From an uncultured Alphaproteobacteria bacterium (GTDB lineage: Bacteria > Pseudomonadota > Alphaproteobacteria > Rs-D84): a stretch of 64,000 bases of DNA. The stretch lies in contig CALXML010000001.1 in NCBI GenBank assembly GCA_944389465.1, positions 487 through 64,486 on the forward strand, written 5' to 3'. A program made the translations under genes and the position numbers. The notes under the pieces were generated by a model. It was not told the origin of the DNA. It ran no database searches and saw only the letters and a program-made list of their open reading frames with translations. Numbering within the stretch: position 1 is the stretch's first letter; the number at the start of each line of letters is the position of its first letter. Positions 5,884 through 63,870 of this stretch are shown here, piece by piece.

Positions 5884-6735
5884 TTAGTTAGAATAATTAC
5901 AATTTCCGTTTACAATGCTGAATGTGCCGTATATGTCTTTGCACATAGTGCTTGTTGGCAGATAGCATTGTGTTATGCTGGTTGACCCACCTGGTGATGT
6001 TGGCTGTGTATCACAGAAATCAATAATATCTGATGATGCACTGGGACAATTATAACAGCTGTGCACACGGGGATTTGGCCTATAATAGCCGGCTTTACAC
6101 GAAAAAGTGCCTAGCCCGCCGTTGCAATTTGCATTATCTGGGCATTTATTACAACGTAGTGTTATTTTACCACTGTCGTTTGGTTCACCGTCGCCAGAAA
6201 AATAGTATGATTTTTCATAAGCACAGTAGCAGTTTTTAAAAAGACCGCGTTCCGGATGTTCGCAATCTCCGTTTATGTCCGGACGGGCCCTTGAATATAG
6301 ATCACATTCTATAGGATTTGTAGTGTAGCTCATACTAGCATAAGACGAAAAAATATCAGGATACATTGATGGATTGGTTGGTTGTTCTGTATTGCCTGAA
6401 CCTGAATAACAATTTGAACCGGGAAAATATTTAGCGCAACCGTAAAATTCTTGACCTTGGGCGGCACCGGTACGTTCCCACACTGCATATTCTGATGGAT
6501 CAGTACAATAAATATTGGCGCATTCTGGTAAATCTTTTTCTTCAGACGCGCCAGTGTAGCTAAGGCCAAAACAATAAAATTTCCGGCCGCCTGTTGTTTC
6601 AACCTTGCAATAACTTTCATCAGTGTCACCATGTTCCTTAAAAAGCTCATCGTATAATTCGTTGCAGTCATATTCTTGTGAAATTGTAGCGAATTTGGTC
6701 ATAGTATAATCGTAATTGTCGTTGTATGTGTTCAA
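5884..6735 (-). CDS. Cys-rich secreted protein, family member A; start codon and N-terminal signal-peptide exon currently inverted (OFF)
   Basis: 283-aa ORF with about 30 Cys, a CNKCPDNANCNGG...C motif and the C-terminal motif KDIYGTFSIVNGNCNY. The reading frame stays open upstream to the repeat core at 6797-6802 (NGGLIICATLSSAANA/VILGN) but has no ATG or RBS there. Confidence 0.75.
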   Translation of the reverse strand: MNTYNDNYDYTMTKFATISQEYDCNELYDELFKEHGDTDESYCKVETTGGRKFYCFGLSYTGASEEKDLPECANIYCTDPSEYAVWERTGAAQGQEFYGCAKYFPGSNCYSGSGNTEQPTNPSMYPDIFSSYASMSYTTNPIECDLYSRARPDINGDCEHPERGLFKNCYCAYEKSYYFSGDGEPNDSGKITLRCNKCPDNANCNGGLGTFSCKAGYYRPNPRVHSCYNCPSASSDIIDFCDTQPTSPGGSTSITQCYLPTSTMCKDIYGTFSIVNGNCNYSN

Positions 6736-6793
6736 ATCTATATTGCCTAGAATTACTGCATTTGCCGCTGATGACAGTGTTGCGCAAATAATT

Positions 6794-6888
6794 AAACCAC
6801 CGTTTTATTTCGGCAAAAATGGGGGATAAAAAATGCAGATTTCTGGAATTTTTTCTAAAATAAAAACCACGATCGTAATCGGTGGTTT
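6794..6888. promoter_or_regulatory. invertible DNA switch A: 12-bp inverted repeats flanking a 77-bp segment that carries the RBS, ATG and first codons
   Basis: AAACCACCGTTT (6794-6805) and AATCGGTGGTTT (6877-6888) match in inverted orientation at 11/12 positions. The segment holds GGGGG at 6821-6825 and ATG at 6833. In-silico inversion yields an in-frame MQISGIFSKIKTTIVIGGLIICATLSSAANA signal peptide. Confidence 0.7.
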
Positions 6889-6893
6889 GTTTT
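6856..6893. terminator. bidirectional intrinsic terminator (xthA terminator and OFF-state terminator of switch A)
   Basis: Hairpin CCACGAT-CGTA-ATCGGTGG with T-runs on both sides. One arm of the hairpin is the right inverted-repeat core. Confidence 0.6.
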
Positions 6894-6923
6894 CGGCATA
6901 TTTATTTGTTCGCTGTACCATAA

Positions 6924-6952
6924 ATTATATGGCACAGCGGGATTTTTATCAA
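6924..6952 (-). promoter_or_regulatory. sigma70-type promoter reading into switch A
   Basis: On the minus strand, TTGATA (6952-6947), a 17-nt spacer and TATAAT (6929-6924). It sits immediately after the xthA stop codon. Confidence 0.55.
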
Positions 6953-6959
6953 GACTTTT

Positions 6960-7730
6960 TTAATCCATTTTCAACATTAATCCACAATGGTCGGTGGGTT
7001 TCGCCGCCAAGCGTGGATTTATATCTATTTCACAGCATTTTATGTTTTTCATTGCTGCTGGATTGGCCAGAAAATAATCCAGCCGCAGGCCCTGTTTATT
7101 ACCAATTGTATCACGACCACGATAACCATACCATGTGTAATCAATCGTATCGGGGTGCATTGTGCGCCATACGTCCGTCCAACCGGTATCCAACCACGAT
7201 TGCATAATTTCGCGTGCGGCCGGGGCGGCGATTGCGATACCAACATAGTTGGCCGGCTTCCACACGTCCGCATCCGTCAGTGCAACGTTAAAGTCCCCGC
7301 CAATAATAACCTGTTCAGGGGAATTTATGTACTGTGCAATATGTTGTGTAAATGCACGCATCCAGTCCAATTTATATGGAAACTTTGGTGAATCAATTGT
7401 ATCACCATTTGGCATATACACGTTTATTATACGCACGTGACCGTCAATAACACACTCAATAAACCGCGCATTTACGTCCGCATACGTCGGCAGGCCGTAT
7501 GTCACATCCTCAACCGAATATTTGGAAAAAATGGCGACGCCATTCCATGATTTTTGACCGTATACCTTGACATTATAACCGTATTCGTCAAACAGGTTGT
7601 GCGGGAAATTTGCGGTTTCAACCTTTAATTCCTGAACCAATATGACGTCGTATTCGCCAGTGCGCAAAATGTCCATAAAACTTTCTGCGTGGGCGCGTAT
7701 TGAATTGATATTTAGTGTTAATATTTTCAT
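6960..7730 (-). CDS. xthA: exodeoxyribonuclease III
   Basis: MKILTLNINSIRAH...VILVQELK...GGDFNV... is the EEP-fold Xth pattern. Start set at ATG 7730. Confidence 0.9.
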   Translation of the reverse strand: MKILTLNINSIRAHAESFMDILRTGEYDVILVQELKVETANFPHNLFDEYGYNVKVYGQKSWNGVAIFSKYSVEDVTYGLPTYADVNARFIECVIDGHVRIINVYMPNGDTIDSPKFPYKLDWMRAFTQHIAQYINSPEQVIIGGDFNVALTDADVWKPANYVGIAIAAPAAREIMQSWLDTGWTDVWRTMHPDTIDYTWYGYRGRDTIGNKQGLRLDYFLANPAAMKNIKCCEIDINPRLAAKPTDHCGLMLKMD

Positions 7731-14245: not shown

Positions 14246-14677
14246 TTAGTCAGATAGATTACTGAACATCGCAGAACGGACAGATGCATTGCTCGCCGCG
14301 TCGCGCGCACAGTTGTTCGCGCAAGAGACGGCACAATTAGACGCCGACCCGAAGTCGTAGCTGAACACCCAAGACGATACGGCCGGTGATGTCATTTTAC
14401 ACCAGCAATACCTGTCATCAGTACCGCCACTAATTTCCAAAGACGTCGCTGTTTGGCCAGCTGAACTGCCACTTGTGCTGGAACATTGACTTATGCCGCT
14501 TATTGCAATACTCGTCCCACTGGTGGTACAATTTGATTTCCAGTCAACAACATAACTCCCAGAATAAACATATGAACACGTTGTTGATGATGACAGTTTT
14601 ACGCATTTTGTGACGGCAAACGCCGGTGGAATTGTGGCCACGCAAATCAGGCCAGCAATTAATAAATGTTTTTTCAT
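14246..14677 (-). CDS. Cys/Ser/Thr-rich secreted protein (143 aa), cassette I
   Basis: CAGGAG RBS and ATG 14677. Signal peptide MKKHLLIAGLICVATIPPAFA. Its paralog lies at 17642-18064. Confidence 0.75.
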   Translation of the reverse strand: MKKHLLIAGLICVATIPPAFAVTKCVKLSSSTTCSYVYSGSYVVDWKSNCTTSGTSIAISGISQCSSTSGSSAGQTATSLEISGGTDDRYCWCKMTSPAVSSWVFSYDFGSASNCAVSCANNCARDAASNASVRSAMFSNLSD

Positions 14678-14907
14678 TTTCAAACTCCTGTTTTTTCTGA
14701 ATAAGAAAACCACCAGAAAATTCGGGTGGTCAGGAGGTTAGAAACAATTGAACGAATTGTGTCGCTTATTTTGATATTTCACGACCCTCCTGACCAAATA
14801 TCAGGAGTTGTTTTTCGTCGTAATAAAAACAGCGCACTTGCGCCGTATTATATATCGCGACGCGTTCACAGGGTTTCTACACCCCATTGACGGAATACCC
14901 ATCAACA
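14678..14907 (-). ncRNA. structured leader RNA, copy 2 (5' UTR of cassette I)
   Basis: Same architecture as copies 1 and 3, with compensatory variants: P2 CTCCTGA/TCAGGAG, anti-element CCTCCTGACC, P1 TAGAAAC/GTTTCTA. Terminator ACCACC...TGGTGG+TTTTC. TSS inferred. Confidence 0.6.
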
Positions 14908-17348: not shown

Positions 17349-17627
17349 TTATTCCAACGGACATGCTTGTTCAAATTCATATGTGCCGGATTCGTCAGTA
17401 TACTGCGTGTTTGCCGGTGCATACATTATACATGAACCAGATGGTGACGACACCAAACAACTGTCCGCTGTGCCGGCGGATGTGTATCCGGTGGGACACG
17501 AACTGTCCGATATTATTAAATATTCTTCTTCTATTGTTGCATAACCCGATGGGCACGATGTTGACGGTGCGGCGGCAAATGATGCACACGGCGTAATTGC
17601 AAAAAATAATATAAAAATTCGTTTCAT
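17349..17627 (-). CDS. small Cys-rich secreted protein (92 aa), cassette II
   Basis: MKRIFILFFAITPCASFAAAPSTSCPSGY...YTDESGTYEFEQACPLE. Start set at ATG 17627. Confidence 0.75.
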   Translation of the reverse strand: MKRIFILFFAITPCASFAAAPSTSCPSGYATIEEEYLIISDSSCPTGYTSAGTADSCLVSSPSGSCIMYAPANTQYTDESGTYEFEQACPLE

Positions 17628-17641
17628 ATTTGCCCCCACAT

Positions 17642-18064
17642 TTAATCGGACAGATTGCTGAACAACGCGGACCGGAAAGACGCATTGAACTGAGCGATGC
17701 TCGCACAGTTGTACGCGCAAAGGTCCGCGCAACGACCGCCCGACGAGTTCGCGCTGTAGAAAACCCAGCGCGACACCGCAGGTGATACCATTTTACACCA
17801 GCAATATTTGTTATCATTACTGGTTGAACTGGTCGTAACGGCGTCGGTGGTTGCACCAGCTGAACCGCCGTTTTGCGAACCGCAAAATGCAACACCCTGT
17901 ATTGATATGCCACCGCATGTTGCGGACCAATTTGATTGACCTGTTGCGCCCGAATAATCGGGACACGTTGTTGATGATGACAGTTTTACGCATTTGGTCA
18001 CGGCCATGGCCGGTGGAATTGTGGCCACACAAATCAGGCCGGCAATTAATAAATGTTTTTTCAT
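17642..18064 (-). CDS. Cys/Ser/Thr-rich secreted protein (140 aa), cassette II
   Basis: AAGGAGG RBS and ATG 18064. The N- and C-termini are nearly identical to 14246-14677, while the middle section has diverged. Confidence 0.75.
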   Translation of the reverse strand: MKKHLLIAGLICVATIPPAMAVTKCVKLSSSTTCPDYSGATGQSNWSATCGGISIQGVAFCGSQNGGSAGATTDAVTTSSTSNDNKYCWCKMVSPAVSRWVFYSANSSGGRCADLCAYNCASIAQFNASFRSALFSNLSD

Positions 18065-18252
18065 TCTAAACCTCCTTGTTTTCATTGCGAATGAAAAAAC
18101 CACCGAAATGAAGGTGGTTGGAGGTTCGAAACTATTAAAGGTAATAGTGCTGTTTATTCAATATATTCACAAGCCCTCCAACCGTGGTTGGAGATATTTT
18201 TAAATTTTCCTTTAAGAGGTTTCGACACCCCGTTAATGGAACGCCCATTAAC
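18065..18252 (-). ncRNA. structured leader RNA, copy 3 (5' UTR of cassette II)
   Basis: P0 GTTAATGG/CCATTAAC, GGGGTGT, P1 TCGAAAC/GTTTCGA, P2 CTCCAAC/GTTGGAG, P3 ACTATT/AATAGT, CCTCCAACC, terminator ACCACC...GGTGGT+TTTTTT. Confidence 0.6.
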
Positions 18253-32228: not shown

Positions 32229-32445
32229 TTGCACATCTGCTTGTGGTTGGCGTTGGTCACGTAACTCCCTGTACGTTCCCGTTGCCAACCACATGCGCAT
32301 CTGCACAATTCTAATTGATTTATGATTCGGATGTTGAAAACAGTGTTCGTGTAACTGTTTGTACACCCCCTGCGTTTTCCCGCACATATCTGGCCGGCTC
32401 TAATTGATTTGTTTTTTGTATTGGCGCATCTGCTTGTGGTTGTAT
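32228..32445. repeat. degenerate tandem ~88-bp repeats (about 2.3 units) with internal hairpins
   Basis: GC(A/G)CATCTGC occurs three times (32231, 32295, 32424), with the CTTGTGGTTG extension at 32231 and 32424 only. CTAATTGATTT occurs twice (32311, 32399). GTAACT..TGTAC occurs twice. There is a 10-bp stem TGTGGTTGGC/GCCAACCACA. Confidence 0.5.
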
Positions 32446-32456
32446 AATAAAAAAAT

Positions 32457-32485
32457 AACACGGATTTATCCCGTGTTGTTTTTTA
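32457..32485 (+). terminator. intrinsic terminator
   Basis: AACACGG-ATTTATC-CCGTGTT followed by GTTTTTT. Confidence 0.7.
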
Positions 32486-32503: not shown

Positions 32504-32628
32504 TGGAAATAAACGGTGGTTTATTTTCGGCATAAGTTTTTATATCTTATAATATAATTTTGTCATATTTTCTGGGTAATTGTCAATTCTTGATTTTGCA
32601 TATTTTTAACCACCGTTTAGATTCGGCA
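32504..32628. promoter_or_regulatory. switch B: the same inverted-repeat core pair flanking a 90-bp AT-rich upstream segment (candidate invertible promoter/UTR segment)
   Basis: AAACGGTGGTTT (32511-32522) and TAACCACCGTTT (32607-32618) match in inverted orientation at 11/12. The left site has palindromic arms GGAAATAAA-CGGTGG-TTTATTTTCGGCAT. The right site is followed by the conserved TTTAGATTCGGCA...GGGGG...ATGCAA leader. Confidence 0.5.
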
Positions 32629-32648
32629 AGCAATTTGGGGGATGTATC

Positions 32649-33527
32649 ATGCAAAAATCAAGAAATTTTTTAAAAGTAATGTTGGATATTGTGTGTATGT
32701 TGTGTGTATCAAACGCATTCGCAATTACCCATGTGACAGAAGGGCAATATTATAATGATTGGTATAAAAGTGATTTTGTTAGCAGGTCTGGTTTTTCGGG
32801 CTTGGATTGTGTTGAAGAGGGCTCTGTAAATAATTTAAACCAAAATTACCGTGATGATGCGTGTAAGTTTTTCTTGGTAAATACGAATTATATTTGTGGT
32901 AATGCAGGAACAGGAATGAGTTATGATACACATGGTTTTGATGGTTTGCCTGATTGTGGGACTGTGTCATCTGCGTGTCAGGGGTATGATGTTATGATAT
33001 GGGATAACGTCGTGCCCGAACCAACGCCAATTGGATGTGCAAACCAATGCGACAATTTGTGTCGTGCTGATAATGGTTGGGAAGAATTGGATGAGTTTGA
33101 ATGTGCAATAAAGCAGTATTGGCGAAATAATACAAATTGTGTTTGTGATAAAGTTGGAACGCCAGAAATATATTATGAAGATTGTCAATGTCGTTATGAG
33201 TATTATTGTAACAGTAATTGTGACGCATCAGGAAACGGTGATGATATGCCAGAATGTTTGCCGTGTCCCCCAAATGCGACTTGTAATGGTGGAAACGAAT
33301 TAAGAAATTTTATTTGCAGCAGTGGTTATACAGTTGCATATGCATTAAATTCAATACGAACCCCCACTGGATGTTGCCCTGTGTTATTAGATAAAACTGG
33401 TTTGGGCCGATATTTGGTAGATGCCGAAAATGATTATAAATGTTATGCAAATGGTGGCAGCTCCACGTTTTCATTTACTGATTCAATTGGAACATTCTAT
33501 TTTACAGAAGACTGTGAATATAAATGA
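32649..33527 (+). CDS. Cys-rich secreted protein, family member B (intact start, ON configuration)
   Basis: Signal peptide MQKSRNFLKVMLDIVCMLCVSNAFA, about 34 Cys, CLPCPPNATCNGG motif, and C-terminal TDSIGTFYFTEDCEYK. Confidence 0.8.
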   Translation: MQKSRNFLKVMLDIVCMLCVSNAFAITHVTEGQYYNDWYKSDFVSRSGFSGLDCVEEGSVNNLNQNYRDDACKFFLVNTNYICGNAGTGMSYDTHGFDGLPDCGTVSSACQGYDVMIWDNVVPEPTPIGCANQCDNLCRADNGWEELDEFECAIKQYWRNNTNCVCDKVGTPEIYYEDCQCRYEYYCNSNCDASGNGDDMPECLPCPPNATCNGGNELRNFICSSGYTVAYALNSIRTPTGCCPVLLDKTGLGRYLVDAENDYKCYANGGSSTFSFTDSIGTFYFTEDCEYK

Positions 33528-33541
33528 TTAATTATTAATAA

Positions 33542-34051
33542 TCATTTTTTTCCAAAGTGTTTTTTTAGTGTATTATATGCGTCGGTGATTTTTGTAAATT
33601 GTTTTGCGGCCACGTCTTTGTCACCGGTTGCAGTGTCGGGGTGGTGGCGTTTTGCCAATGCACGATATTTGGCCGATATTTCACGCCATGATGCGGTAAT
33701 TGGTAAATCAAATGTTGCAAATGCAGATGTTATGCGACCAGACAGGTTTGTGCGACGGGGTGGGGCTTTATCAAATGTTGCACGACCTGTGATAAAATCG
33801 TTTAGAAATTTTATATAATCTGCATTGTCGGCGTCGGCCTGTTTTTTATCTTTTAATGGTGCGCCAAATGTTTGGCGTTCCCAATCTTCTTCTATTTCGT
33901 CGGGGGTCATACCGGCATAATAATTCCAATTTTTATTATATTCAGCCGCGTGTTCACGGCAAAACCACCAATAATCTGTTAAATCGCGGTTTTTGGGTGC
34001 ACGACAAGTACCGGCCTTGGTGCAACCAGCATGGTCACATTTTTTTATCAT
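33542..34051 (-). CDS. J-domain (DnaJ-like) protein with a Cys-rich N-terminus
   Basis: C-terminal J domain (ISAKYRALAKRHHPDTATGDKDVAAKQFTKITDAYNTLKK) and N-terminal CDHAGCTKAGTC..FCREH. Confidence 0.8.
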   Translation of the reverse strand: MIKKCDHAGCTKAGTCRAPKNRDLTDYWWFCREHAAEYNKNWNYYAGMTPDEIEEDWERQTFGAPLKDKKQADADNADYIKFLNDFITGRATFDKAPPRRTNLSGRITSAFATFDLPITASWREISAKYRALAKRHHPDTATGDKDVAAKQFTKITDAYNTLKKHFGKK

Positions 34052-34914
34052 TTTTCAAAATCCTTGTTGGTTGCCAGTGGGTGATGTAATTGAACTGTTT
34101 CTTTTAACTTTTCTGGCAAAACGTGTGTATAAATTTGTGTTGTGGATATATCTTCGTGTCCCAGCATTGTTTGTATCGCGCGCAGATTTGCGCCACCCGC
34201 CAACAGGTGTGATGCAAATGAATGGCGCAGTACGTGCGGACTGACCCGATTGGGGTCAATGCCGGCCAATACCGCACATTTTTTCAGTATTTTAAAAAAT
34301 CCATCACGCGTGATATGGCCGCTTTTTCCAGTTGATGGGAAAACATATTTTGATTTGTCGTTACCACGAATTTCCAGCCATTTATGTAATGCAGCGCGGG
34401 CACGTTCATGCATGGGAACAATGCGTTCCTTGGCTCCCTTGCCATGGATTAATAATTTATCGCCCAAATTTGCAGTCATTGGTAATTCGCATAATTCTGA
34501 TACGCGCAGACCAGATGCATATACCAATTCCAGCATTGCGCGCAGTCTGGTTGCATTACGTACATCGCCCGCCGATGAAATTAATAATTCTATTTCATCA
34601 ACTGATAAAAATTTTGGTAATGTGCGTGTGCGTTTGGGTAATTCCAAGTTTGCTGCCGGATTTTCAGAAATAATTTTTTCCAGCATTAAAAATTTGTAAA
34701 AACCGCGCAGGGCACTGGCCTTGCGTGCAATGGAAGAGGGCCGTTCCTGCAGATGTGATAAATAATTTTGCACATCATTTGCTGTTGCGTTCATCAGACC
34801 GCCAGAAATATTTTCATCTGCCTGATGTAAATCACTGGCATAACTGGCCAATGTTTTTGTACTGCGACCACGTTCAGCAGACAGGGCTTCTAAAAAAACA
34901 TCTATGTAATTCAT
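34048..34914 (-). CDS. xerD: site-specific tyrosine recombinase XerD-like
   Basis: ASGLRVSELCEL, HGKGAKERIVP, HVLRHSFASHLLAGGANLRAIQTMLGHEDISTTQIYTHV (R-K-H-R-H-Y signature). Confidence 0.85.
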   Translation of the reverse strand: MNYIDVFLEALSAERGRSTKTLASYASDLHQADENISGGLMNATANDVQNYLSHLQERPSSIARKASALRGFYKFLMLEKIISENPAANLELPKRTRTLPKFLSVDEIELLISSAGDVRNATRLRAMLELVYASGLRVSELCELPMTANLGDKLLIHGKGAKERIVPMHERARAALHKWLEIRGNDKSKYVFPSTGKSGHITRDGFFKILKKCAVLAGIDPNRVSPHVLRHSFASHLLAGGANLRAIQTMLGHEDISTTQIYTHVLPEKLKETVQLHHPLATNKDFEK

Positions 34915-61282: not shown

Positions 61283-61312
61283 TTGCGGGTGGGGCGCACA
61301 GATTGATATAAT
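61283..61312 (+). promoter_or_regulatory. promoter reading into switch C
   Basis: TTGCGG, an 18-nt spacer, then TGaTATAAT (extended -10). The block TAAAAAAGTCTTG directly after the upstream stop codon is shared with locus A. Confidence 0.5.
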
Positions 61313-61336
61313 ATACATAAAAGATATGCCGAAAAT

Positions 61337-61433
61337 AAACCACCGATTAATATCGGTGTTTTTATTTTTTTGAAAATACCGAAAAACTGCATTTTTTATT
61401 CCTTTCTGTTGTACCGAAATAAAACGGTGGGTT
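61337..61433. promoter_or_regulatory. invertible DNA switch C: inverted repeats flanking a 79-bp segment carrying the RBS, ATG and first codons (currently flipped, OFF)
   Basis: AAACCACCGATT (61337-61348) and AAACGGTGGGTT (61422-61433) match in inverted orientation at 10/12 with an identical 6-bp core. ATG lies on the minus strand at 61392-61390. In-silico inversion gives an in-frame MQFFGIFKKIKTPILIGGFIMLIGFSTGASA. Confidence 0.7.
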
Positions 61434-61437
61434 TATT

Positions 61438-61941
61438 ATGTTGATTGGTTTTTCAACGGGTGCATCTGCGACGACGACGACATGCCCAGATTGTTATAAA
61501 TGTGTGAAGTATTCAGGCAGCAGTTGTTTGCAATGTGAATACGATCCCGATTATTGTATGGGAGAGGTTGTCTGTGGCGATGGCAAGGTTTGGGATGCAG
61601 ATGCACTTGAATGTGTATGTGACCCAGCAAAAATATGTTTTGGTACAGTGGACCCAGACACCTGTGAATGTATTGAAGAAGAGGTGGCTTGTGAAGATGG
61701 GCAATATCACAATGGAAAGGTGGGATTATTGGCCCAGTGTTTGGATTGTCCGACGTTGAATGGGTGTCTTCGTGGTCCGCACAGTACTGGCGATGGTGCT
61801 GCTGGTATAACAGATTGTTATTATGGCGTTGATGCCATATGCACAGACAGTGCCGGCAGTTATGTTTTTTCAGAAGATTGCCGTTACGATGATTCTGATT
61901 CTTCTGAAGAAGAGGTTGAAGAAGAGATTGAAATTAATTAA
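61438..61941 (+). CDS. Cys-rich secreted protein, family member C; N-terminal signal-peptide exon currently inverted (OFF)
   Basis: 167-aa ORF with 24 Cys, CLDCPTLNGC motif, C-terminal TDSAGSYVFSEDCRYD and an acidic tail. As assembled it starts MLIGFSTGASA with no n-region. Confidence 0.75.
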   Translation: MLIGFSTGASATTTTCPDCYKCVKYSGSSCLQCEYDPDYCMGEVVCGDGKVWDADALECVCDPAKICFGTVDPDTCECIEEEVACEDGQYHNGKVGLLAQCLDCPTLNGCLRGPHSTGDGAAGITDCYYGVDAICTDSAGSYVFSEDCRYDDSDSSEEEVEEEIEIN

Positions 61942-62136: not shown

Positions 62137-63870
62137 ATGTCTTATCCAATTGAAACGATTCGTCATTCTTTGGCGCATGTTATGGCGGCAGCCGTACAGA
62201 AACTGTATCCAGATGTAAAATTTGCGGGTGGGCCGGCCATTGAAAATGGGTTTTATTATGACTTTGATACCGAACACAGATTTTCCGAGGATGATTTTGC
62301 AAAAATTGAAAAGGAAATGCGTGAATTGATTAAGTCTAATGGACGATTTGAACAGCGTAATGTGTCATTGGACGAAGCCAAGCAAATTTTTGCAAATCAG
62401 CCGTATAAAATGGAATGGTTGAATGAATATGATGCCGCAGGCGAGGCTTTATCTGTTTATACTTTCCGTGATTTTGTTGACCTGTGTCGTGGGCCACACG
62501 TTGAAAGTTCCAAAGATTTACCGCGTGACGCGTTCAAGATTCGCAATGTTGCCGGTGCTTATTGGAAGGGTGACGCAAAAAATAAAATGTTACAGCGCAT
62601 TTATGTTAATGCGTTTGCCAGCAAAGAAGAATTGGATGAATTTTTGAAAATGCAGGCCGAGGCTGCCGCACGTGATAACCGTAAATTGGGCAAGGATATG
62701 GATTTATTCCATTTTGAACCTGATTATGCACCGGGGGCGGTGTTCTGGCATGACAAGGGATATAAATTTTATCGTAAATTAATTGAATATATTCGCCATC
62801 GTCAGGAACGTGCCGGTTATCAGGAAATCTCAACGCCGTCCGTGATGGACCGGTCGCTGTGGGAACGCAGTGGCCATTGGGCTAAATATGGCGAACATAA
62901 TTATTCCGGTAAAACCCAAGATGGTAAAACGTTCTGTGTGAAACCGATGTCTTGTCCGGGGGGGATGTTGGTTTTTGGTCAGGGTATTAAATCATATAAA
63001 GATTTGCCGTTGTATTTGGCTGAATTTGGTAAAGTTAATCGGTACGAGGCCGCCGGTGGTTTGTCTGGCCTGATGCGGGTGCGTGAATTTACACAGGATG
63101 ATGCGCATATTTTCTGTACCGAAGAACAACTGGAAGAAGAGGTTGTAAAAATCTTGCGCTTTATCAAGGATATTTATGCAAAATTTGGATTTGATAAAAT
63201 TTCTATGAAATTGGCCACGCGCAAGGATTCTGAATTTCGTATCGGTTCTGATGAAATTTGGGACAAGGCCGAGGGCGCATTAAAACACGCATTGGATGCA
63301 AATGGCATTGAATATGAAATTGCGCCGGGGGATGCCGCGTTTTATGGGCCGAAAATTGATAACTATCTGAAAGATGCGCTGGGGCATACATGGCAATGTG
63401 GTACGGTTCAATTGGATATGAATTTGCCGGAACGCTTTGATTTGTCATATATTGGTGAAGATGGCGAAAAGCATCGTCCAATTATGCTGCATCGCGCGAT
63501 GTTGGGTTCAATTGAACGCTTTATGGGGATATTGCTGGAATCAACGGGTGGAAATTTGCCGTTGTGGTTATCGCCAGAACCCGTGGTTGTAACACCAATT
63601 TCAGAAAAGTTCCGCGATTATGCGGTTGAAATAGTTGACAGTCTGCGTGACGCGGGTGTGTATGCACGTGCTGATTTGCGTGATGAAAAGGTTAACTATA
63701 AAATCCGCGAATTATCTTTGGCAAAAACACCGATTATTGCGATTGTTGGTGAAAAAGAAATGGAAAATCGCACTGTGACGCTGCGCCGGTTGGGGGTGGA
63801 ACAACAGGAAAATATGCCATTGGATGAATTTATTGCCAATATGCGCAATGCGGTAAAAATACCGGCATAA
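62137..63870 (+). CDS. thrS: threonine-tRNA ligase (no N-terminal TGS domain)
   Basis: Starts at the editing-domain motif IRHSLAHVMAAAV. Class II core (FRDFVDLCRGPHV, RVREFTQDDAHIF, GSIERFMGILLE) and an anticodon-binding domain. Confidence 0.95.
   Translation: MSYPIETIRHSLAHVMAAAVQKLYPDVKFAGGPAIENGFYYDFDTEHRFSEDDFAKIEKEMRELIKSNGRFEQRNVSLDEAKQIFANQPYKMEWLNEYDAAGEALSVYTFRDFVDLCRGPHVESSKDLPRDAFKIRNVAGAYWKGDAKNKMLQRIYVNAFASKEELDEFLKMQAEAAARDNRKLGKDMDLFHFEPDYAPGAVFWHDKGYKFYRKLIEYIRHRQERAGYQEISTPSVMDRSLWERSGHWAKYGEHNYSGKTQDGKTFCVKPMSCPGGMLVFGQGIKSYKDLPLYLAEFGKVNRYEAAGGLSGLMRVREFTQDDAHIFCTEEQLEEEVVKILRFIKDIYAKFGFDKISMKLATRKDSEFRIGSDEIWDKAEGALKHALDANGIEYEIAPGDAAFYGPKIDNYLKDALGHTWQCGTVQLDMNLPERFDLSYIGEDGEKHRPIMLHRAMLGSIERFMGILLESTGGNLPLWLSPEPVVVTPISEKFRDYAVEIVDSLRDAGVYARADLRDEKVNYKIRELSLAKTPIIAIVGEKEMENRTVTLRRLGVEQQENMPLDEFIANMRNAVKIPA

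Follow-up and report, generated by a model that had tools for sequence, protein, structure and literature searches.

The closest described relatives of the system reported here are the vsa locus of Mycoplasma pulmonis and the mba/UU172 locus of Ureaplasma parvum, in which inversion between short repeats in coding sequence joins a 5' end, comprising the ribosome binding site, start codon and signal peptide, to the body of a variable surface protein in a reduced-genome, host-associated bacterium (PMC3047005). In these systems the promoter, together with the ribosome binding site and the 5' end, forms one expression site for several 3' bodies, and the outcome is antigen switching. We analyzed a 64,000-nucleotide (nt) stretch of DNA, hereafter the window (positions 487 to 64,486 of the forward strand of contig CALXML010000001.1, assembly GCA_944389465.1), from an uncultured alphaproteobacterium of the order Rs-D84, in which a gene for a cysteine-rich secreted protein, designated locus A, lies next to a 77-nt cassette that holds a start codon and half a signal peptide in the opposite orientation. 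Locus A probably belongs to a family of switches based on site-specific DNA inversion, found in Candidatus (Ca.) Enterousia-like gut Alphaproteobacteria (Rs-D84, ~0.9 Mb). It resembles vsa and mba in its proposed short-repeat inversion within coding sequence, in the make-up of the 5' end that is joined, and in the pairing of variable surface proteins with a reduced genome. It differs in that the promoter does not move, every gene comes with a private cassette of 77-79 nt, the outcome is ON or OFF, the breakpoint lies inside the hydrophobic h-region of the signal peptide, the host is an alphaproteobacterium rather than a mollicute, and the sites share no sequence similarity. A shared expression site for several silent bodies is not found at the window loci, whereas an in-frame signal fusion across a coding-sequence breakpoint is obtained in 17 of 18 reconstructed flips and at three natural loci (L038, L078 and L180). 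A preliminary description of this locus, made from the sequence alone, had considered inversions that move a start codon or an N-terminus much rarer than promoter inversions, which is fair but needs qualifying in view of vsa and mba/UU172 (PMC3047005).

Partial intergenic invertons and gene-altering inversions likewise place one repeat in coding sequence and the other outside it, with the result that a flip alters the gene product (10.1101/2023.03.11.532203; PMC9881135). According to the available text of these two studies, by Chanin et al. and Milman et al., the inversions concerned are long and mostly shufflon-like swaps of downstream gene parts, and the search of Milman et al. considered paired coding sequences whose repeats measured 22 bp or more (PMC9881135), a requirement by which a segment of 77 nt between 12-bp repeats would escape detection. 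As defined in that text, their class, in which the repeats are linked to two coding sequences on opposite strands, differs from the present loci, where the repeat is 12 bp at locus A and at most 18-19 bp (L029, L089), the outward open reading frame (ORF) is unconserved past the arm, and the outcome is ON or OFF instead of a choice between variants. A mini-cassette of Shine-Dalgarno (SD) sequence, start codon and half a signal peptide apparently occurs in neither study; in their available text the term "signal peptide" is absent and "start codon" appears once, in the methods of Milman et al.

Invertible promoters, such as Escherichia coli fimS, mpl of Mycoplasma penetrans and those of Bacteroides capsule loci, also combine short inverted repeats with a small segment, turn surface molecules ON and OFF, and occur as many loci per genome served in trans. 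Unlike in the fimS type, the promoter of locus A lies outside the segment, it is the translation start and export signal that flip, and the OFF state adds a predicted terminator made from the antisense of coding sequence. A promoter within the segment is found at locus C of the same window, and locus C and the 91-nt toggles described below (L006, L052) are invertible promoters built on the same site as locus A. A third group comprises the inversions of phages Mu and P1, which join constant and variable gene parts, systems of the Hin/Gin/Cin serine-invertase type swapping C-terminal gene parts. The near-palindromic site described here, with its AAACC-type centre, presumably recalls the hix and gix sites of these enzymes, a likeness that we take as a lead only. 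Unlike the Hin/Gin sites it measures 32 bp (13-6-13) and not 26, and no adjacent invertase gene was found; a tblastn search with Hin returned no resolvase-family gene from the window or the ~200 fetched loci.

Every sequence feature listed in the preliminary description of locus A is present where it had been placed. The inverted repeat consists of AAACCACCGTTT (6794-6805) and AATCGGTGGTTT (6877-6888), complementary at 11 of 12 positions with 71 nt between the arms. A fixed promoter (TTGATA-17-TATAAT, 6924-6952, minus strand, an 11/12 match) stands outside the invertible segment, is aimed into it, and is conserved in the ortholog L099 as well as in L179 and L180. It is followed on the minus strand by the promoter-side half-site (module X, 6880-6898), made of the arm TGCCGAAAACAAA and the core CCACCG, and then by the 77-nt cassette (6803-6879, plus strand), which is OFF as assembled and holds the arm of module U, the 5' untranslated region (5'UTR), the SD sequence, an ATG and 15.7 codons (MQISGIFSKIKTTIV). 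The SD sequence GGGGG (6821-6825) and the ATG at 6833 (together 6821-6835, plus strand) are directed away from the gene body, and this SD-ATG module also directly precedes gene C. The body-side site (module U, 6797-6815, plus strand) combines the core CCACCG (6797-6802) with the consensus arm TTTTATTTCGGCA. The body of the secreted protein (5884-6804, minus strand) begins NGGLIICATLSSAANA/VILGN; its frame reads TAA-NGGLIICATLSSAANAVILGN, with the TAA at 6807-6805, and contains no SD sequence of its own ahead of its first possible start codon (ATG, GTG or TTG), which is the TTG at 6735. In-silico reversal of 6803-6879 yields MQISGIFSKIKTTIVIGGLIICATLSSAANAVILGN..., a protein of 321 amino acids (aa), in frame, and the predicted inversion junctions are GATCGTAATCGGTGGTTTAATTATT and AAACCACCGTTTTATTTCGGC.

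In the ON state, a layout seen naturally at loci paralogous to A, the fixed sigma-70-type promoter facing the cassette between its two inverted cores would give a transcript running through the core, the 5'UTR, GGGGG, the ATG and 16 codons (MQISGIFSKIKTTIVI), then across the second core, which would encode Gly-Gly, into the body, completing the Sec signal peptide MQISGIFSKIKTTIVIGGLIICATLSSAANA/VILGN. In the OFF state, which is the assembled one, the body has no SD sequence or start codon and its signal peptide no charged n-region, and the antisense of the cassette sets a hairpin and U-run ~20 nt after the promoter; the three together would prevent expression. The hairpin (6867-6885), followed by UUUUUAUUUU, and the U-run (6857-6866) together span 6857-6885 on the minus strand. 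The hairpin is weak when taken alone (-8.4 kcal/mol, z = -1.1), and its 3' half pairs with the core. The U-run is antisense to AAAATAAAAA, which encodes Lys-Ile-Lys in the conserved n-region (..SKIKT..). Among 22 non-redundant loci, 18 have a terminator-like structure in the OFF orientation, defined as a hairpin of -5 kcal/mol or less formed by the 34 nt next to the promoter-side arm, with 7 or more T in the 10 nt behind it, and none of the 22 has one after flipping. As judged from sequence, a single flip thus strips the SD sequence, start codon and n-region from the body and sets a predicted terminator before it.

Two features of locus A had been overlooked in the preliminary description. A direct repeat (6802-6815/6885-6898) extends each arm of the inverted repeat, and the hairpin sits at the expected position of the terminator of the upstream xth gene (6960-7730, minus strand), 75 nt 3' of its stop codon. 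On its own the 12-nt, 11/12 repeat does not stand out from chance: 22 inverted pairs lie in the same 500 nt, and two of these match equally well. Its significance stems from its recurrence across loci and not from the repeat itself. An Rfam search of 6500-7200 returned sub-threshold noise only, and sequence searches of Pfam, NCBIfam and the Protein Data Bank (PDB) with the Cys-rich proteins were empty, the locus A protein having no Pfam or PDB relative.

Self-comparison and direct reading of the window revealed three loci built of common modules, namely A (6.8 kb), C (32.5 kb) and B (61.3 kb), spaced 25-29 kb apart and each with its own promoter, cassette and single body. Locus B (61283-61441, plus strand) follows the design of locus A and is likewise OFF: the promoter TTGCGG-18-TATAAT (61283-61312) is succeeded by the X-core (61328-61345), a 79-nt cassette (61346-61424) that holds the SD sequence and ATG CAG ... 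backwards (MQFFGIFKKIKTPILI), the core CGGTGGG (61425-61431) and the body, which starts at ~61423 and reads TAA-NGGFIMLIGFSTGASA/TTTTCPDC after CGGTGGG. The locus carries the 18-mer GCCGAAAATAAACCACCG, and its gene lies at 61438-61941 (plus strand). Locus C (32514-32651, plus strand) is the promoter-inversion version, in which cores at 32514-32519 and 32610-32615 enclose a 90-nt segment (32520-32609) with the promoter TTGACA-18-CAAAAT. This promoter presently fires leftward, off the gene, into a strong terminator (32477-32457), and gene C itself (32649-33527) has its 5'UTR, GGGGG and ATG CAA fixed before an intact signal peptide. Related promoter-segment loci are L006, L052 and L024. The window also contains a set of imperfect repeats (GCACATCTGCTTGTGGTTG..., CTAATTGATTT...) at 32230-32440, which lies upstream of this switch in the interval from trxB to the terminator (32457-32477).

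The recombination site common to these loci is a 32-bp near-palindrome, TGCCGAAAAYAAA-CCACCG-TTTNNTTTCGGCA, whose asymmetric 6-bp core has a 13-bp arm on either side, and this 13-6-13 layout is conserved over 96 site copies. The geometry resembles that of tyrosine-recombinase core sites such as loxP, FRT and dif, although the likeness is one of resemblance only. When a locus is OFF, each of its sites pairs a consensus arm with a weak one, and flipping renders the promoter-side site fully palindromic; the segment measures 77-79 nt in 37 of 48 loci. The sequence AAACCACCG occurs six times in the window against 0.96 expected, and the longer 18-mer GCCGAAAAYAAACCACCG marks exactly loci A, B and C. 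Two of the copies of AAACCACCG are unrelated to the switches, one at 18097 belonging to an ordinary terminator hairpin and one at 63054 lying inside an ORF (62137-63870) with tRNA-synthetase domains. We also considered a deletion between the direct repeats of locus A, which would give MPKTNGGLIICATLSSAANA in frame, and set it aside because these "direct repeats" belong, as its two arms, to a single palindromic site and because the upstream ATG is part of an arm and absent in some loci.

An 18-mer scan of 185,579 species genomes returned 103 loci, ~65 of them in metagenome-assembled genomes (MAGs) of gut Alphaproteobacteria, the hosts including Ca. Enterousia intestinigallinarum, Ca. Enterousia avistercoris and a 958-kb circular MAG. 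These MAGs belong to the reduced-genome order Rs-D84 (PMC12306168), and a single MAG of ~0.9 Mb carries 9-11 exact-core loci. After the core the sequence continues either as a backward cassette (OFF, ~32 non-redundant loci) or as 5'UTR, SD sequence and start codon (ON). Promoter-segment versions also occur, some of them as 91-nt toggles that separate a pair of divergent genes (L006, L052). Eight further loci (L025, L026, L061, L068, L072, L094 and L066/L151) have the same arms and a 77-78-nt segment whose start region differs, ATGCAGAAATCTGG being replaced by the palindrome CCCAGAAATCTGGG with no start codon; they may represent an invertible terminator or a decayed cassette. A scan of metagenomes for the core returned ~12 family loci, each in the same state as its genome counterpart, and a profile search with the 45-aa N-termini returned only the short outward ORFs of OFF loci.

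Public gene calls for the family start at artefactual points, namely the TTG of the arm (MPKKIGG...), an internal TTG (MNTYND...) or a promoter-side ATG with read-through. The proteins so affected are P0001, P0002, P0004, P0005, P0021, P0006 and P0027, the last being a read-through product of 341 aa. As a consequence the true N-terminus is missing from databases, where the family looks non-secreted or truncated.

In-silico flipping of 18 OFF-type loci produced in-frame ORFs of 130-456 aa with predicted complete signal peptides in 17 cases. The 18 loci are related and thus do not amount to 18 independent trials, but the frame is preserved although their bodies differ completely. The arrangement predicted by these flips is found in nature at L038, L078 and L180, where promoter, core, 5'UTR, SD sequence, ATG, 16 codons, core and body follow one another. 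The ON products are MQISGIISKIKMPILNGGLFTAILTVIILFSHSANA/... (263 aa) for L038, 118 aa for L078 and 373 aa for L180, which has the promoter TTGATA-17-TATAAT and a cassette identical to that of locus A at 53 of 53 nt. Downstream of the 373-aa Cys-rich gene, xth-like sequence of L180 (1314-1393) matches window positions 7149-7228, and beside xth the L180 strain seems to have one more switch-controlled gene, which is absent in the window.

The preliminary description had suggested checking whether orthologous loci occur in both orientations, and this proved to be so for locus B. Its protein cluster includes a 212-aa member, P0048, from contigs L195 and L196 (Logan), which have the gene order HlyIII, switch, B and tRNA-synthetase gene. 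The 79-nt segment of L195/L196 is the exact reverse complement (79/79) of that in L197, L198 and L199, while the flanks are 97.4-98.9% identical and the breakpoints fall within the 6-bp core. In L198, an OFF allele, the promoter-side core (~295-310) reads AACCCACCG instead of AAACCACCG and so forms, together with the body-side arm, a 12-bp repeat without mismatch, which could be a trace of arm-to-arm sequence exchange in past inversions. For locus A the same comparison gave only a lesioned ON-type junction in L179, all other alleles being OFF. In L179, a strain of the same species with the gene order of locus A and flanks that share 96.9% and 94.7% identity with the window, the match ends precisely at 6877, in the repeat arm, and the sequence continues with the 5'UTR module in ON orientation. 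The preliminary proposal of a start-codon inverton held in the OFF orientation therefore stands as to its architecture and as to natural inversion in the family, but a productive ON allele of locus A was not found.

Assembly breaks offer a further trace. In a Hadza MAG, the end of contig CAKQSE010000003 coincides with the last base common to both orientations, and at this break (L009/L006, CAKQSE010000003/4) it overlaps its neighbor by 77 nt, in a record whose name carries K77, a hint of the branch that mixed orientations would produce. Eight contigs (L009, L006, L011, L015, L041, L071, L084 and L088) stop no more than 120 nt from a core site. In the CASDTC bin, copies of one repeated promoter mark the ends of several contigs, and a break induced by the repeat could explain these just as well.

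Several observations weigh against the inversion reading or call for caution. Locus A is identical and OFF in all four assemblies (the window and three others), and the same state is seen in Ca. E. intestinigallinarum, the sister species, and in all related proteins recorded; for locus B, 10 of 10 assemblies of this species are OFF. Metagenomes scanned for CGTAATCGGTGGTTTAATTATTTG, the ON junction of locus A, gave no matches, and flank-based pairing to find one locus in two states gave five orthologous pairs with the same state in each. The alleles flipped at locus B or bearing the ON-type junction at locus A are damaged: L195/L196 lack one G in the core (CGGTGGG to CGTGGG; AATC-GTGGG, L195 1610-1625), which throws the cassette ORF out of frame to a stop after 21 aa, the upstream ATG of the arm coming into frame instead to give the 212 aa of P0048, and L179 has lost ~125 nt including the start codon and second core. 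The repeat of locus A matches at only 11 of 12 positions, one arm of each site is degenerate, and in the window and ~200 fetched loci no recombinase is linked to the sites. Moreover, all orientation states derive from consensus assemblies.

These facts would suit a family that once inverted but is now frozen, with loci A and B no longer switching, the repeats decayed, and the genes silent or on their way to being lost; the indel between the two cores of locus B and the weak second arms at locus A point the same way. We nevertheless regard a frozen relic as unlikely. Minority orientations are invisible in consensus assemblies, and cassette, terminator and frame have all been kept. The bodies remain open in dozens of alleles: nearly all are intact, with 1 of 13 locus B alleles truncated (L187), and the 15 members listed of the 65 in the locus B protein cluster span 160-212 aa. 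Locus B is under purifying selection: in comparisons of strains and of species its ratio of nonsynonymous to synonymous divergence (dN/dS) is 0.25-0.34. The body of locus A compared with that of the sister-species ortholog L099 gives dN 0.075 and dS 0.025, a ratio of ~3, next to an xth gene with dS 0.64, which points to recent exchange between lineages together with diversifying selection. The body protein of the same-species strain L179 is only 49% identical to that of locus A although the flanks are 95-97% identical. Silent bodies that are both intact and under selection constitute the main indirect argument for ongoing switching, as genes that are never expressed would behave otherwise. The alleles of L195/L196 and L179 look like locked, decaying ones, the mutated core of L195/L196 probably locking the orientation, and such locking may be the reason why these alleles surface in consensus assemblies. 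A parallel exists in UU172, where a frame-shifting T insertion occurs at the inversion sequence (PMC3047005), much like the core indel of L195.

We think it very improbable that the assembled orientation is the working one, with translation starting at the TTG of the arm (TTG CCG AAA ..., MPKKIGGLIICATLSSAANA), the hairpin acting as an attenuator and the ATG on the opposite strand being irrelevant. Gene callers do give MPKKIGGL... for P0001, P0002, P0004, P0005 and P0021, the stretch is open in those alleles and resembles a short signal peptide, and a deletion between the direct repeats would yield MPKTNGGL... in frame. Yet an in-frame TAA interrupts it at loci A and B of the window and in L082, no SD sequence lies ahead of it, where there is antisense CCCCC, and the ATG/TTG is part of the palindromic arm and not found in every locus. 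The natural ON loci use the start of the cassette, and the hairpin with its U-run would halt transcription ahead of the body.

A mobile element similar to a miniature inverted-repeat transposable element, whose 77-79-nt cassette with terminal inverted repeats has inserted in and disrupted the 5' ends of secreted-protein genes, could account for the constant length, the inverted-repeat bounds, the many copies per genome and the direct repeats that flank the segment, as well as for a cassette shared in full (53/53) between locus A and L180 while the bodies are unrelated. This explanation is equally improbable, since the only SD sequence and start codon of the bodies come from the cassette, with the frame restored in 17 of 18 flips, and since the direct repeats are arms of one palindromic site and not target-site duplications. 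In addition, one locus is known in both orientations with breakpoints in the 6-bp core, the same site also borders promoter segments, and the site core gives no matches in viral contigs. Finally, the notion of a coincidence, in which the hairpin is the xth terminator, the repeat arose by chance and the Cys-rich gene starts at TTG 6735 with no signal peptide, draws on the distance of 75 nt to the xth stop, the frequency of such 12-nt inverted pairs in this AT-rich spacer and the weak fold, but is refuted by the family-level data, in which frame, length and site are conserved over three window loci and more than 60 elsewhere.

Which enzyme might act on the sites of the inversion family can be addressed from the gene content around them. 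The only recombinase seen in the window is an XerC/D-family tyrosine recombinase (34048-34914, minus strand), 1.4 kb from locus C. Its protein scores 308.6 bits with NF001399, 296.3 with the XerD equivalog (cut-off 329.6) and 257 with XerC (cut-off 335); it is at most a candidate for the role and could simply be XerD. Orthologs occur in L066, L151 and L184, and a second, more distant Xer-like gene in L093. Searches with tblastn using Hin and FimB (approximate queries) and the Xer-like protein against the window and the fetched loci returned Xer-family genes only, which are not enriched near switches, and the approximate Hin query detected no serine recombinase in the same set. Given that the inversion switches of mollicutes are run by Xer-like enzymes (PMC3047005), an Xer-like tyrosine recombinase acting in trans on the cassettes is our guess by analogy.

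Two further ORFs of the window starting MKKHLLIAGL... (14246-14713 and ~17395-18064, both minus strand) have an ordinary fixed SD sequence and no switch modules; the first continues ICVATIPPAFA/VTKCVKL, while the second was read at its start only. At least one secreted-looking protein, encoded by the ORF at 14246-14713, is thus not under switch control.

Taken further, and with a slight preference rather than firm confidence, we favor a general picture in which Rs-D84/Ca. Enterousia genomes hold at least 9-11 switches per 0.9 Mb that would share one 32-bp site and one recombinase in trans, maybe a co-opted Xer-type enzyme. The main type would be a 78-nt dual-coded cassette, of which one orientation would provide the SD sequence, start codon and n-region and the antisense of the other would form the transcription terminator; the same site would also drive promoter flips and two-gene toggles, and the cargo would be orphan, fast-evolving Cys-rich surface proteins. 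With one enzyme flipping cassettes genome-wide, each cell would show a changing subset of these orphan Cys-rich secreted proteins.

We found no description of a flip-switch family of this kind in the literature searched. Published genome descriptions of this lineage deal with metabolism only, and the Rs-D84 genome paper mentions neither inversion nor phase variation (PMC12306168). The set of features that distinguishes the family is the fixed promoter, the private cassette, the h-region breakpoint, the dual coding as terminator, the separate 32-bp site and the uncultured alphaproteobacterial host. The design appears very compact, as one flip of 77-79 nt would gate transcription termination, the start of translation and export of the protein at once, since on the opposite strand the signal peptide's Lys codons also serve as the U-run of the predicted terminator. 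Given its enzyme, the 13-6-13 site could serve as a small recombination target. Repeats of 12 bp around so small a segment fall under the 22-bp threshold stated in the available text of Milman et al. (PMC9881135), and similar switches may therefore be under-counted. If the proposal is true, it would add a phase-variation system to a lineage for which the literature searched holds none, and a concrete, testable one, in bacteria that are common and uncultured in the animal and human gut.

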